The notes under the pieces are model-generated. The model had not been told where the DNA came from and ran no database searches. It was given only the letters and a program-made list of their open reading frames with translations. From a virus, in IMG/VR virus record IMGVR_UViG_3300044546_001014: a DNA stretch of 17,070 nt. One strand, 5' to 3'. This document shows, piece by piece, positions 1 through 10,995 of the stretch. A program made the position numbers and the translations under genes. Numbering within the stretch: the first letter of the stretch is position 1; the number at the start of each line of letters is the position of its first letter.

Positions 1-2
1 GA

Positions 3-1193
3 TATCGCTACAGGATTTATCCTACCCTGCAACAAGAACAACAGATGACGTCTGTGGGTGGTGCAGTTCGATTCCTATACAACCACTTTCTCAAGGTAAA
101 CATAGATCAATACAACCAAGACAAAACATTTGTGTGGCAGTTTGACATGTGCAAACAGTTCACATCACTCAAGACCCAACACACTTGGTTGAAAGACACC
201 TACAGTCAGGTGTTGCAGAGCAGCATCAAGGACCTAGATCAAGCACTCAAGAACATCAAGAAAACCGGTGCTGGGTTCCCCAAGTTCAAGAGCAAGTACA
301 CTACGCCAATAAGTTTCAGATATCAACAACATACATCAATTAGCACTGATGGCAAATATGCCCATCTACCAAAAATAGGTGCTATCAGAATCAAGCTGCA
401 CAGATCACTGCCCAGCAAATATACCGGTTGCACAATCACACAAACACCACGTGGTTGGTATGCAAGTTTTGTGGTTGATGTGGCAGAACTGCCATTGGTA
501 GATCAAGTGCAGAACCCAGTGGGAGTGGATGTCAACAGCCAATACACAGCATTATCAACTGGTGACCTGATTGCCAATCCACGACCACTCAAACAAAAAC
601 AAGTGAAAATTAAGTCACTACAACGCAAACTTGCCAAGAAACAAAAGGCAAGCAAGAACAGAACCAAAGCAAAATTAAAACTGGCACGAACTCATGATCT
701 GGTTCGTTGCCAAAGATTAAACCATATACACCAAATCAGTGCGAGAATAGCCAAATCGCATGACCTGGTGTCAGTTGAAACACTGAAAATTGAAGAGATG
801 AGGAAGAAGAGCAAGCTAGCAGCCAAAGCTATTGCGGATGCAGGATGGGCCATGTTGGCTAACGCAATCGCCTACAAATTCCAACTAGCTGGTCATCACT
901 TCACCAATATAAATCAGTGGCTACTCAGTAGCAAGACATGCAGCTCATGTGGTACCAAGAAATCATCACTGGATTTGAAGCAACGAGAATATCATTGTGA
1001 ATCTTGTGGTGTTACACAGCATCGCGACATCAATGCAGCAGTGAATATCAAGAACTGGGGACTCCAACAATGGAACATAGATCATGCAAGGCAGGAACTG
1101 CCTCAAGCGCCTGTGGATGTGACTTGGGATATAATGGACAATTGGGGCCATGTATCTCAGTCACAATTGAAGCAGGAAGTCACTGCCCTTTAG
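3..1193 (+). CDS. tnpB: IS200/IS605-family TnpB (OrfB), an RNA-guided RuvC-like nuclease; the N-terminus is cut by the window edge
   Basis: The reading frame is open from nt 3 (YRYRIYPTLQQEQQ precedes the listed Met, matching the TnpB N-terminal 'KAYKYRIYPT..EQ' block). The RuvC-I motif is GVDVN; the RuvC-II Glu lies in VSVETLKIEEM. The zinc finger is CSSCG...CESCG and the RuvC-III motif is HRDINAAVNI. A Lys/Arg-rich linker is typical of the family. Confidence 0.9.
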   Translation, partial: YRYRIYPTLQQEQQMTSVGGAVRFLYNHFLKVNIDQYNQDKTFVWQFDMCKQFTSLKTQHTWLKDTYSQVLQSSIKDLDQALKNIKKTGAGFPKFKSKYTTPISFRYQQHTSISTDGKYAHLPKIGAIRIKLHRSLPSKYTGCTITQTPRGWYASFVVDVAELPLVDQVQNPVGVDVNSQYTALSTGDLIANPRPLKQKQVKIKSLQRKLAKKQKASKNRTKAKLKLARTHDLVRCQRLNHIHQISARIAKSHDLVSVETLKIEEMRKKSKLAAKAIADAGWAMLANAIAYKFQLAGHHFTNINQWLLSSKTCSSCGTKKSSLDLKQREYHCESCGVTQHRDINAAVNIKNWGLQQWNIDHARQELPQAPVDVTWDIMDNWGHVSQSQLKQEVTAL

Positions 1194-1244
1194 GGCGTGG
1201 TAGTTCACATACATATTCACAAGCTGTGTCAAACACTGGCAAAT

Positions 1245-1742
1245 TTATCCCAGCATGGCGATAGCTTTGGCAGCATCTGAATGGGAGAGGCCCACAGTGG
1301 GATCAGTTACAATGGCACGTGGTCCCAGGCTGGCAATGCCTGTGATATCGTCCACAGCCACCCAGTTTGTGATTTCTGGATGATCAGCCAACCACCTATG
1401 GATTTCATTTACTCTGTGGCTGCTCAACTTTCTGGGGGTCATGTAACTGCGTTCACTGGGATCTTCCCACTCAAAAACATGCTCAGTGCTGATACCATTG
1501 CGTTCCAGGCAACTGGTGATTTGGCTAAAACTATGGCCCATGGCCCAGCTGGTGCTCAGCACAATTTCTGTTTGTGTGGTGTTCAAAATGTGCATGAGGT
1601 TGCTCACGCACTGGTGATCAAATACCACTTTGTCCAGGTAATTGGCATGTGTGAGACCTTGATTGGCTTGTTCTTGTGCTAGGGGATCTGGCAGGAGAAC
1701 TCCATCAAAATCCAAAAATAGTATTTTTGTCAACGGTCTCAT
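1245..1742 (-). CDS. HAD-superfamily hydrolase or phosphatase-like protein
   Basis: The N-terminal motif I is ILFLDFDGVL (DxDG). A VAVDD motif near the C-terminus is consistent with HAD motif IV. An AGAGG sequence abuts the ATG. The gene is convergent with tnpB. Confidence 0.55.
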   Translation of the reverse strand: MRPLTKILFLDFDGVLLPDPLAQEQANQGLTHANYLDKVVFDHQCVSNLMHILNTTQTEIVLSTSWAMGHSFSQITSCLERNGISTEHVFEWEDPSERSYMTPRKLSSHRVNEIHRWLADHPEITNWVAVDDITGIASLGPRAIVTDPTVGLSHSDAAKAIAMLG

Positions 1743-1802
1743 CCTCTTGACGTATGTGTGTATTTAGAGTAAGCTTTTTCAAGTATTAAGTCAAGGATTC
1801 CC

Positions 1803-2267
1803 ATGGACAGCAAATGGAAACAACGGTGGCTGAAATTGGCACACGAAGTGGCCAGCTGGAGCAAGGACACTGTTCAGGTGGGTGCCATCATATTTGATCA
1901 CAACAGAAACCCTCGTGGGTTTGGCTACAATGGTCAGCCTCGTGGATTGGATGATCAACATCCTGATAGATTACAACGTCCGCTCAAGCCCTTGTATTTT
2001 GAACATGCAGAACGCAACGTGATTTTTGCCTGTGCTAGAAATGGCATCAGTTGTGATGGTTGCACCATGGTGGTCACACACTGGCCCTGTTGTGATTGTA
2101 CCAGGGCCATCATACAAAGCGGTATAAGAGAATTGATTGTGGATGCAGCGTGCATGGATCCACAAGGTTATTTTTTCCAAAAATGGCAAACTCACATTAG
2201 TGAAAGCCAACAAATGCTGGATGAATGTGGGATTGTCTGGCATCTGGAAAGTTTATCATCAGGATAA
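1803..2267 (+). CDS. dCMP (deoxycytidylate) deaminase
   Basis: The zinc-binding signature HAERNVI...THWPCCDC (HAE / PCxxC) matches the CMP/dCMP deaminase family. An AAGGA sequence lies 8 nt upstream of the ATG. Confidence 0.85.
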   Translation: MDSKWKQRWLKLAHEVASWSKDTVQVGAIIFDHNRNPRGFGYNGQPRGLDDQHPDRLQRPLKPLYFEHAERNVIFACARNGISCDGCTMVVTHWPCCDCTRAIIQSGIRELIVDAACMDPQGYFFQKWQTHISESQQMLDECGIVWHLESLSSG

Positions 2268-2295
2268 ATATTCTCAAAATACAGGGAATATCACC

Positions 2296-2742
2296 ATGAG
2301 TGAATTGGGATCAAGTATGAAGGTTGTGCTGGCAGATACATTCAGTATGTATATGCAAGCACACAAATATCATTTCAATGTGGAAGGTCCAGATTTCAGC
2401 CAATACCATGAGCTGTTTGGCAAAATCTATGATGAGCTGTGGCAGAGTGTGGATGAGATTGCTGAACACATACGAGTTTTGGACGAGTATGTGCCTTTCA
2501 ATTATGCCAGGCTACAGGAATTGAGCACAGTGGAAGATGACAACAAAATTCCCACAGCCAGCACCATGATAGAAAGATTGCTGGACACCAACAACAAGGT
2601 GATTGAGAGTGTCAAACAAGCACTGGAACAGGCCAAGATTGCCAATGACGAAGGATTGATCAACTTCCTGGGCGAACGTCTGGAAGTGCAGGGCAAACAT
2701 GGTTGGTTCCTGAGAGCCAGCACAAAAACCAACAGGGCTTAA
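2296..2742 (+). CDS. dps: Dps/ferritin-like DNA-binding protein
   Basis: LADTFSMYMQAHKYHFNVEGPDFSQYHELFGKIYDEL...VDEIAEHIRVL matches the Dps ferroxidase-centre helices (H, D and E ligands in the expected spacing). The start is placed at the in-frame ATG at 2296 (an alternative Met is at 2317) rather than the overlapping upstream Met at 2137. Confidence 0.8.
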   Translation: MSELGSSMKVVLADTFSMYMQAHKYHFNVEGPDFSQYHELFGKIYDELWQSVDEIAEHIRVLDEYVPFNYARLQELSTVEDDNKIPTASTMIERLLDTNNKVIESVKQALEQAKIANDEGLINFLGERLEVQGKHGWFLRASTKTNRA

Positions 2743-2744
2743 AG

Positions 2745-3386
2745 TTACTGCCAAGCCACCATTTTGAATCGTTCACTGGGTAGTCCAAAAAAAGCACACT
2801 TGTAGTCACTTTGTGCAAAAAAATCCAGATCATGCCATTCCTGTTTACGCCGCAGCAGTTCTTTTGCTGCGGCTTCCCAGTCTTGATTGAGAAACATGGG
2901 TTCCAGTTGGGCTTTGACCTGTTGTATCTCTGAATAATCAAAACTGTCAAATTCATAGTGGAATATTTCAAACACGTTGCCCTGGGTGTCTGCCCAGTCT
3001 ATGCTGAAGTCCAAGCCCCATTTGGGTCTGTATCTGGCAACTTTGTAGAACAAGGGAATTTGTTGTGCCCAGGTTTCCAACTGCTCTAGGGCTGCTCCTG
3101 CATATCCTTTGCGTTCAAACAACAGTGCATGATTGAGAACAGCACCCTCCGCTACCTCTGGTTCCTGTAAGAACCAAGGTTTTTTGAGGGCTATGTGCGT
3201 GTAATTTCTGTGCATGCTGTGCCAATTGGCATTCACCTTGCTGTACATGATTTCCAATTCACTGAGATCATATCCATTTTGATCAAACAGAGCAACGGAA
3301 TGGGCTGGGGGACATGTGTGTTCAAGGAGTGGATTTGTCCAAAAAGCATTGGCATCAAATTGGCTGTCAGCAAGTGATAGGGTCAT
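2745..3386 (-). CDS. hypothetical protein (213 aa)
   Basis: A long ORF divergent from the tail-fibre gene; no recognisable motif. Confidence 0.45.
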   Translation of the reverse strand: MTLSLADSQFDANAFWTNPLLEHTCPPAHSVALFDQNGYDLSELEIMYSKVNANWHSMHRNYTHIALKKPWFLQEPEVAEGAVLNHALLFERKGYAGAALEQLETWAQQIPLFYKVARYRPKWGLDFSIDWADTQGNVFEIFHYEFDSFDYSEIQQVKAQLEPMFLNQDWEAAAKELLRRKQEWHDLDFFAQSDYKCAFFGLPSERFKMVAWQ

Positions 3387-3440
3387 ACCCGGAGTCTAGA
3401 ATGAATACTGGTAAATATTCCATATTGCGGAGATATTTTT

Positions 3441-7364
<3,924 letters not shown>

Positions 7365-8407: not shown

Positions 8408-8692
8408 TTAGGCAACCATGCGCTGGTCACCATCACCAGCATCACCAACTTCCTCAGCCACAGTTTCAGCAGTGGGGATGGTGAGTCCGCGACGTGCAGC
8501 AAGATCAGCTGCCATCACAGTCTTGAAGGCATCTTCCTTGGTCATCTCGCCAGGCAGCTCGACGAACTCAATGTTCTCGAAGCCTTCCTTGGTCATGGTC
8601 TTGATGCGTGCATCAGCACGACCATTGGTAAAGCGAAACTTGTCCTTGCCCTTGTAGATGGCAGCGCCAATGTGAGTGAAAGTCTTGGCCAT
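8408..8692 (-). CDS. hypothetical protein (94 aa)
   Basis: An SD (AGAGGAGAA-N8-ATG) precedes the ATG. The C-terminus is acidic. No motif is recognised. Confidence 0.5.
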   Translation of the reverse strand: MAKTFTHIGAAIYKGKDKFRFTNGRADARIKTMTKEGFENIEFVELPGEMTKEDAFKTVMAADLAARRGLTIPTAETVAEEVGDAGDGDQRMVA

Positions 8693-8804
8693 AGCTGTTG
8701 TTCTCCTCTGTTTTGAATCAGCTTATGTCATCAATATAGCATCTGACTCTGATCAGTCAATGGGATTTTTTGCCAAAATAACTGATTAAACCCCTAATTG
8801 ATTG

Positions 8805-10847: not shown

Positions 10848-10995
10848 TTACCAACTGTTCATATATTATGTGCTAGATATGGGTTTGTCAACACATAATA
10901 TATAAATAAAGATGGTAATCCTGTTGCTACGAACAACAGGAAACCCGGCTTGGAGCCCCAGGCTGTCCCACACATATATTTACTTGGAGATTCCT

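Follow-up and report, generated by a model that had tools for sequence, protein, structure and literature searches.

At the left edge of a 17,070-nucleotide stretch of viral DNA (IMG/VR record IMGVR_UViG_3300044546_001014; hereafter the window, meaning the whole stretch analysed) lies a gene for TnpB, an RNA-guided nuclease of IS200/IS605-type insertion sequences (IS), followed after 51 nt (1194-1244) by a convergent gene of the HAD family. An earlier reading of these letters (the original prediction) had noted both the intact nuclease and the narrow gap, and had expected a guide-bearing ωRNA (also called reRNA) to overlap the 3' end of tnpB and the right end (RE) of the element. All of this was borne out, apart from the end it gave, 1260, which lies 16 nt inside the HAD gene and past the true end of the element at 1208. 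We collected longer contigs of the same phage by exact-protein look-up of the HAD protein in JGI, NCBI, ENA and Logan metagenomes. These contigs are 98-100% identical to the window and give, in the orientation of tnpB, the gene order AdoMet_dc (AdoMet decarboxylase, minus strand), 91 nt, tnpB (plus), 51 nt, HAD (minus) and then further genes. Here we describe how tnpB and its predicted ωRNA form an insertion that is present in some genomes of this phage and absent from others, and that has lost its left end (LE).

The tnpB gene, its right end and the ωRNA scaffold

The frame that begins at window base 3 stays open up to the stop codon of tnpB. The first four codons (MKLR) and all DNA to their left are lost at the window edge, and on the longer contigs (L067-L082) the open reading frame (ORF) is complete at 400 aa. 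Three Pfam domains, each above its curated cut-off, were found in the protein, namely HTH_OrfB_IS605 (PF12323, E 4.7e-12), OrfB_IS605 (PF01385, E 7.8e-20) and Cas12f1-like_TNB (PF07282, E 1.4e-19). The best natural match in a phmmer search of the Protein Data Bank (PDB) was the TnpB of ISDra2 (8BF8, 8EXA and 8H1J; residues 6-358, E 1.9e-45). In this alignment VGVDVN, VSVETLK and HRDINAAVNI line up with the RuvC triad D191, E278 and D361 of ISDra2, and the CxxC..CxxC zinc finger is in place, with CSSCG and CESCG falling on that of ISDra2. We consider window 3-1193 to encode an ordinary, intact TnpB RNA-guided nuclease with predicted cleavage activity. Its relatives in IMG/VR (69-85% protein identity) sit in unrelated contexts. 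Megablast of window 1-3400 against GenBank phages gave no match, tblastn with TnpB returned only TnpBs of less than 35% identity, and a scan of GTDB genomes for a host copy found nothing above 37% identity.

Two contigs carry an apparently mosaic tnpB. In L075 (~1976-3400) and L118 (1-1030) the junctions are those of the window's phage and the tnpB interior is 95-96% identical to the L003-type copy and 88-90% identical to the window; the L003-type copy belongs to another viral contig, and one such copy, L004, derives from a lake metagenome in which an occupied contig was found too. These mosaics reflect either gene conversion between tnpB copies or chimeras of metagenome assembly. The split tnpB of L075 (266 + 131 aa) was considered as a sign of decay and rejected, being instead a mosaic with the L003-type copy.

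The right end was placed by DNA comparison of at least seven independent copies, which share sequence up to ...GGTAGTTCAC and diverge completely from the next base on. The boundary lies between 1208 and 1209, 15 nt past the tnpB stop (Table 1). One subgroup of internally deleted copies ends in TAGTTCGC and all others end in TAGTTCAC. The subterminal RE hairpin, which would also form the 3' hairpin of the ωRNA, has arms that change in a compensatory manner among copies, including, besides the pairs listed in Table 1, CCACAGCCC/GGGCGTGG, CTGTTGGTC/GACCAACAG and CCTCACCCC/GGGTGAGG; the UUUA loop and the first stem pair of this hairpin contain the tnpB stop codon. Where relatives retain a left end, the hairpins of LE and RE co-vary, which is a hallmark of IS200/IS605 ends.

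The scaffold spans the last ~37 codons of tnpB and the 15 nt beyond the stop, and its coding part encodes a C-terminal tail that does not align to ISDra2. In stem-loop 1, GGCAG/CUGCC is replaced in relatives by CCGUCG/CGACGG or GACUG/CAGCC. The long-range helix is near-invariant (four of its five pairs are constant, and a single pair is broken in a single sequence), and in the variable stem that it encloses 11 pairs show changes on both sides. RNAalifold, run on an alignment of 13 right-end regions, gave a consensus of three helices in which 9 of 20 pairs are compensated. Our pair count used a five-helix structure, consisting of this consensus plus the variable stem. Here 85% of cells were paired, against 38-44% when the 3' partners were slid, and 22 pairs were altered on both sides, where the slid controls had 2-9. 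On four of the five measures none of 500 shuffles came up to the values observed. The count is biased in favour of this structure, because the fold of the window itself was its source and the sequences compared are relatives of one another. The minimum free energy of the region has a z-score of -3.0.

A covariance model (R1), built from 11 relatives with the window and its closest copies excluded, served as an independent check. Its sole match in the window was 1084-1208 (plus strand, 101.8 bits, E 1.7e-24), within the 1000-1260 region for which such a search had been proposed, and it also matched the 3' ends of distant tnpB genes outside the training set, including those of a Planktothrix genome and an Oscillospiraceae metagenome-assembled genome. 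On the empty loci described below R1 gave no match. Rfam, searched at gathering thresholds and at permissive E-values, held no ωRNA family for this scaffold, and a hit to 'Transposase-1 RNA' at 956-1001 (E 0.76) was dismissed as chance-level. A structured ωRNA scaffold, with predicted transcription, exists at about 1084-1208, and all the sequence-level hallmarks of a TnpB/ωRNA pair are present. Because the RE ends at 1208 and most of the scaffold lies inside tnpB, the 51-nt spacing is ordinary. The tight arrangement of tnpB and HAD is normal TnpB anatomy and, of the two explanations that had been offered for it, the first, a scaffold lying almost entirely within the tnpB coding sequence, is the correct one.

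Internally deleted derivatives of the same IS family also occur, in L025-L028 (~5000-5411), L039 (~5020-5159), L007 (989-1288, inverted) and L002 (18-212). They keep the LE or a tnpB fragment together with the final 40-110 nt of the RE/ωRNA region, RE fragments that are isolated or inverted lie beside full copies, and R1 still scores the derivatives at 53-81 bits.

Table 1. Features at the tnpB locus, in window coordinates
Feature	Position	Strand	Remarks
tnpB coding sequence	1..1193	+	frame from base 3, stop TAG at 1191-1193; full protein 400 aa (P0028)
Predicted ωRNA (reRNA) scaffold	1084..1208	+	110/125 nt coding (~88%); 5' limit is a minimum estimate
ωRNA stem-loop 1 (AGGCAG-GAA-CUGCCU)	1089..1103	+	compensatory changes in 4/6 pairs
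Long-range helix, CCUGU 1110-1114 / GCAGG 1172-1176	1110..1176	+	encloses variable stem 1118-1165
Subterminal RE hairpin (ωRNA 3' hairpin)	1180..1200	+	compensatory variants CCACAGCCC/GGGCGUGG, CUGUUGGUC/GACCAACAG, CCUCACCCC/GGGUGAGG among copies
Last 8 nt of right end (TAGTTCAC)	1201..1208	+	common to independent copies; empty alleles resume at 1209
Predicted ωRNA guide (ATACATATTCACAAGCTGTG)	1209..1228	+	position from RE boundary; wholly intergenic
HAD_SAK_2 gene (context, outside the element)	1245..1742	-	Pfam E 1.8e-26; phosphatase-like

Empty alleles and the predicted guide

Comparison with tnpB-free homologous loci, as the original prediction had proposed, defined the boundaries of the insertion. 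One empty allele, L090, was found by an exact-pattern search for the predicted empty junction, and four more (L091, L122, L123 and L129) by searching with a fragment of HAD and with the dCMP deaminase; L122, L123 and L129 are contigs of 10-17 kb with an identical dCMP deaminase protein. All five read ...GGCGATTATTTAT up to the insertion point and continue directly with ATACATATTCACAAGCTGTG.... The flanks of L122, L123 and L129 are 98.3-98.9% (left) and 96.4% (right) identical to the occupied allele, and L090 is 100% identical to it between positions -115 and +150 relative to the site. The module, an insertion of 1,233 nt between AdoMet_dc and HAD, is present or absent within one phage species. 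More distant relatives, with HAD proteins 62-80% identical, keep the synteny, and there HAD directly adjoins AdoMet_dc and tnpB is absent.

The predicted guide starts at the first base beyond the RE, and a length of 16-20 nt was adopted for it from ISDra2 (PMC8612924). In four empty alleles (L090, L122, L123 and L129) the 20-mer directly 3' of TTTAT is the guide, at 20 of 20 positions. The match next to TTTAT is weaker elsewhere, with 18/20 in L091 and 17/20 in L088, and a search for a second guide target within the 17-kb window found none. TTTAT is a plausible target-adjacent motif (TAM) for this TnpB, since relatives carry, at the corresponding site on the 5' side of their LE, TTAC (L001, L005, L006 and L119) or TTTAA (L003). 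After TTTAT the occupied allele continues with ATACATAGATATG..., where just the first 7 TAM-proximal nt match the guide; with a match so limited, the occupied allele should escape its own nuclease and be immune to it.

Other observations concern the empty site itself. L090 is a mosaic, in which the leader and the 3' half of HAD are identical to the occupied phage, the start of AdoMet_dc is of the L085 type, and the 5' part of HAD is divergent (76-80% in 50-nt windows; positions 100-180 versus 180-300 compared), which indicates recombination breakpoints within a few hundred nt of the tnpB site. On the AdoMet_dc/HAD strand (window 1209-1235, minus) the empty sites of L088, L089 and L090 read, by eye, TTGACA, 17 nt, TATAAA(T), and the insertion point falls exactly between the two hexamers. 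A consensus scan did not call this pair because the second hexamer ends in A; if it is a real promoter, the insertion has split the promoter of AdoMet_dc. Finally, positions 1-40 of L091 are Illumina adapter sequence (AGATCGGAAGAGCACACGTCTGAACTCCAGTCAC) at the contig end, an assembly artefact in the public record.

The missing left end and the fate of the module

Of the features of a complete IS200/IS605 transposon, an RE with a subterminal hairpin and precise terminus is present here. Two defining ones, tnpA and the LE, were tested for and both are absent, and the missing left end had not been foreseen. On the at least 17 contigs that extend leftwards no tnpA was found, the next gene in that direction being AdoMet_dc on the other strand. 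Since the longer contigs carry no tnpA, this is a solo tnpB; the suggestion that tnpA might lie upstream of the window falls, and the alternative, that it is absent, stands. The leftward extension had also been expected to reveal a left end and a TTAC-like target, of which the target (TTTAT) was found and the left end was not.

Relatives give the form that the lost LE would have had. A Y1 tnpA is carried by L002, and an LE of ~75-90 nt with a hairpin occurs in L001, L003-L006 and L119. In these relatives the LE reads, from the TAM inwards, (C/A)nnCCGCCGCGGAAAG, hairpin, ATGGATAGCGGC and then TTAT ATA(A/C)ATAG(A/C)nATGAT ATG. In this phage no more than ATACATA-GATATGAT stands before the tnpB ATG, with 8 nt of IS-like sequence directly ahead of the start codon; beyond that the DNA is native and runs uninterrupted in the empty alleles. 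An LE profile (nhmmer) gave 88 and 64 bits on control loci versus 21 bits on the occupied flank, and these 21 bits stem from the 5' end of tnpB plus ~15 nt; the profile found no hairpin at the occupied locus on the longer contigs. It also matches no empty site, and so the idea that the native leader in front of tnpB might be what is left of a decayed LE was rejected.

The heptamer ATACATA, at 1209-1215 the first 7 nt of the guide, is repeated at the left junction, outside the window. A target-site duplication was rejected as its origin, since such duplications are not made by this family and the left-hand ATACATA lines up with the relatives' inner LE. Up to 11 nt are common to the target (TTAT-ATACATA) and that inner LE (TTAT-ATAAATA in L119), and by our own rough estimate a junction overlap of 7 nt would arise by chance with a probability of 3e-4. 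The presence of ATACATA at both junctions is thus better read as microhomology with the inner LE, and the left junction appears to be a 7-11-nt microhomology junction within the former LE. The right junction is canonical (TTTAT, then the module up to its RE, then the flank), as expected from either TnpA chemistry or homing. A hypothetical full-length precursor at TTTAT would read ...GATTATTTAT and then CTCCCGCC, AATCCGCC or CTTTCGAG. The best explanation for the lost LE is an event mediated by microhomology at ATACATA, either a crossover that joined an empty allele to the inner LE of an occupied allele of full length, or repair synthesis that was primed there following a TnpB cut. A small deletion at a later time is a further possible route.

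What would such a loss mean for the module? A Y1 TnpA could no longer excise or move this copy. TnpB-ωRNA would nevertheless cut empty alleles when sister phages co-infect a cell, and the cut allele would acquire the module through repair from the occupied genome. The outcome would be TnpA-independent 'non-restorative' homing, or gene drive, in the manner of a free-standing phage homing endonuclease. We therefore propose, with a probability of roughly 0.6, that this is an LE-less tnpB/ωRNA module that TnpA can no longer mobilise and that has probably retained its competence for homing. A more specific version of this proposal is that the locus is a natural snapshot of TnpA-independent TnpB homing between co-infecting phages, with the loss of the LE as the footprint of the mechanism. 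A TnpB cut 15-21 bp downstream of the TAM, at the distal side, would leave target-derived ...TTATATACATA on the broken end; this end would have annealed to the donor's near-identical inner LE, and repair primed from that point would have bypassed the LE hairpin. We hold this version tentatively, and would sooner bet against it than on it.

Several points weigh against homing. Expression of the ωRNA and cleavage by TnpB are predictions from sequence, and a promoter scan of the truncated left side of tnpB gave no convincing promoter or Shine-Dalgarno sequence. TTTAT may be a suboptimal motif, as the TAM was deduced from the LE flanks of about six relatives (TTAC, TTTAA and possibly TTATA). No full-LE allele was found at this site among the contigs examined, and the proposed full-LE precursor is for this reason hypothetical. 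Some of the empty alleles could be secondary deletions between the two ATACATA repeats, and the coexistence of occupied and empty alleles across samples does not alone prove drive. Moreover, polymorphism among the occupied tnpB copies is too low to detect purifying selection; these copies are so nearly identical that no selection test is possible.

The last of these points, together with the want of a clear promoter or Shine-Dalgarno sequence, also speaks for the main rival, in which the copy is a recently stranded, functionless relic that has lost its LE, neither moves nor homes, and has not yet decayed. Presence and absence would then reflect one old insertion and phage recombination, or a deletion from one 7-nt repeat to the other. 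Many of the solo tnpB genes found in genomes are considered inactive, neither tnpA nor LE is present here, and the copy is confined to a single context: the exact 400-aa protein was found in this one context only, in 17 contigs read from 31 index blocks. However, the ORF, the catalytic triad and the zinc finger are intact, as are all the ωRNA helices and the RE to its exact end, the guide and TAM are exactly fit for cutting the coexisting empty allele, and the identical protein recurs across those 31 blocks. We regard a relic as unlikely, although it is the alternative to be taken most seriously.

Less probable still is a domesticated TnpB that has acquired a new phage function, as an RNA-guided regulator or as a nuclease against competitors or the host, in place of selfish homing. 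The fixed position, the lack of transposon mobility and the phage location would suit this, and phage-borne TnpB derivatives (TldR) are known (PMC10705468). Yet RuvC is intact here, unlike in TldR, the guide is native flank as in any IS copy, with no other match in the window, and the insertion is not fixed in the phage species. The original prediction had named two findings that would speak against it, the lack of a structured RNA at the 3' end and a tnpB-HAD junction with no empty counterpart, the latter suggesting a domesticated, non-mobile copy. Neither applies, since a structured RNA is detectable and empty sites do exist, although the copy does occupy one single fixed site.

The two remaining alternatives are refuted for this locus. 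A canonical, TnpA-mobilisable IS200/IS605 element, with LE and tnpA just left of the window, would fit what the family looks like elsewhere (the Y1 tnpA of L002 and the co-varying LE hairpins of L001, L003-L006 and L119), but the leftward contigs pass from 8 nt of IS-like sequence through native DNA into AdoMet_dc and the LE profile finds no hairpin. An RE that overlaps or created the 3' end of HAD, with a guide targeting the HAD coding sequence, was the second explanation in the original prediction and had the short spacing as its one argument; it fails outright, as 36 nt separate the RE from the HAD stop, the stretch 1209-1244 is native, intergenic and identical in the empty alleles, and the 16-20-nt guide still falls 17 nt short of that stop. 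The C-terminus of HAD (...AKAIAMLG) is kept in homologues at 51-99% identity, tnpB-free loci included; it is the same with or without the insertion and was not shaped by the IS.

Phage context and comparison with known systems

Beyond HAD lie genes for a dCMP deaminase, a Dps/ferritin and a tail-spike-like protein. PHROG matches in the same genome, to tail-spike proteins and to an HNH homing endonuclease, identify it as that of a tailed phage, and the host replicon is an uncultured freshwater tailed phage. A search of IMG/VR for HAD homologues found relatives at no more than 34% identity, in which the synteny was not seen, and exact-pattern searches of IMG/VR for the right and left flanks gave no match.

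Other parts of this genome deserve mention. At window 10912-11484 (plus strand) a 190-aa ORF matches PHROG 655, a homing endonuclease of the HNH family (E 1.2e-42), and is a candidate for a second, protein-guided selfish nuclease in the same phage. The tail-spike-like gene (ORF 3441-7364, plus strand; 1307 aa) contains at window 4307-5729 a 51-nt tandem repeat (27.9 copies, 83% matches) that encodes units of ~17 aa, 'NTAVGxxSLxxNTTGxx', and, upstream of this array, collagen-like GxT repeats (81-nt repeat, 3781-3940). Its length differs among contigs of the same phage, with complete versions of 876 and 1460 aa and end-cut ones of up to 1670 aa, suggesting rapid copy-number change in a receptor-binding protein. 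For the Dps/ferritin-like gene (plus strand, end 2742) the candidate starts are 2137 and 2296, giving 173 or 148 aa by gene call, and the longer call overlaps the dCMP deaminase gene by ~45 nt. The leader of AdoMet_dc (L067 ~8690-8760, left of the window) is conserved and holds a 10-bp inverted repeat, ACCTTCCATG ... CATGGAAGGT, which covers a Shine-Dalgarno-like GGAAGG before the likely true start (MNYLEHF) and encloses a second small hairpin. It resembles a translational control element, for which an Rfam search gave no match; gene callers extend the ORF through this leader, to 155 aa compared with 126-129 aa in relatives.

The TnpB/ωRNA pair itself is a known kind of system. It shares with the ISDra2/IS608-type TnpB-ωRNA the domain architecture and catalytic residues (8BF8/8EXA), an ωRNA from the tnpB 3' end and RE, a flank-derived guide and a subterminal RE hairpin, and in both the TAM, here the putative TTTAT, is the transposon target motif, with apparent insertion 3' of a TTAC-like motif; the geometry of the ISDra2 reRNA (tnpB 3' end and RE, with the guide taken from the flank) is as reported by Karvelis 2021 (PMC8612924). 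The differences are a protein identity of ~30%, an ωRNA that matches no Rfam family, TTTAT instead of TTGAT or TTAC, and a copy that sits in a phage genome and has neither tnpA nor LE. What sets this copy apart is the ωRNA type, absent from Rfam, and the LE-less, polymorphic state in a phage, which is unusual.

TnpB-driven, TnpA-independent spread of IS605-family elements has been demonstrated in multicopy plasmids (bioRxiv 10.1101/2025.02.20.638934). As in that gene drive, we see occupied and empty alleles of a multicopy replicon, a guide and TAM that match the empty allele only, and a predicted mode of spread that would need no TnpA. The plasmid case, however, is experimental, whereas here the replicon is a phage, the evidence is comparative and the LE is lost as well. 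For co-infecting phages a 2026 review (PMC13565253) treats 'transposon non-restorative homing' as a theoretical mode; in the literature searched, drive by TnpB alone was proposed for phages and not demonstrated in them, while for plasmids it has been shown. TldR (PMC10705468), one of the domesticated TnpB derivatives, is likewise a phage-borne tnpB homologue that lacks a transposase. Its RuvC is inactivated and its guides are directed at host promoters, whereas here RuvC is intact and the guide is native flank, so that on sequence grounds the module is not a TldR-like dead nuclease.

In its behaviour the module would resemble the free-standing homing endonuclease genes of T-even phages, such as SegF and SegB of T4 (PMC13565253). 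They too are nuclease genes in intergenic DNA flanked by conserved phage genes, their presence varies among close relatives and their flanks are mosaic, and here as there the nuclease is predicted to cut the allele that lacks the module. The difference is that recognition here would be by an RNA guide and TAM, not by protein, with self-immunity through interruption of the target. If the homing reading is true, a tnpB/ωRNA module shorn of its LE behaves as an RNA-guided free-standing homing endonuclease gene, and the locus suggests one route from transposon nuclease to stand-alone homing gene. It offers both alleles of a TnpB target in wild phage populations whose genomes are otherwise 96-100% identical, and such an occupied and empty pair, in which TnpA would play no part, is a configuration in which the spread of TnpB alone through a phage population can be put to the test.

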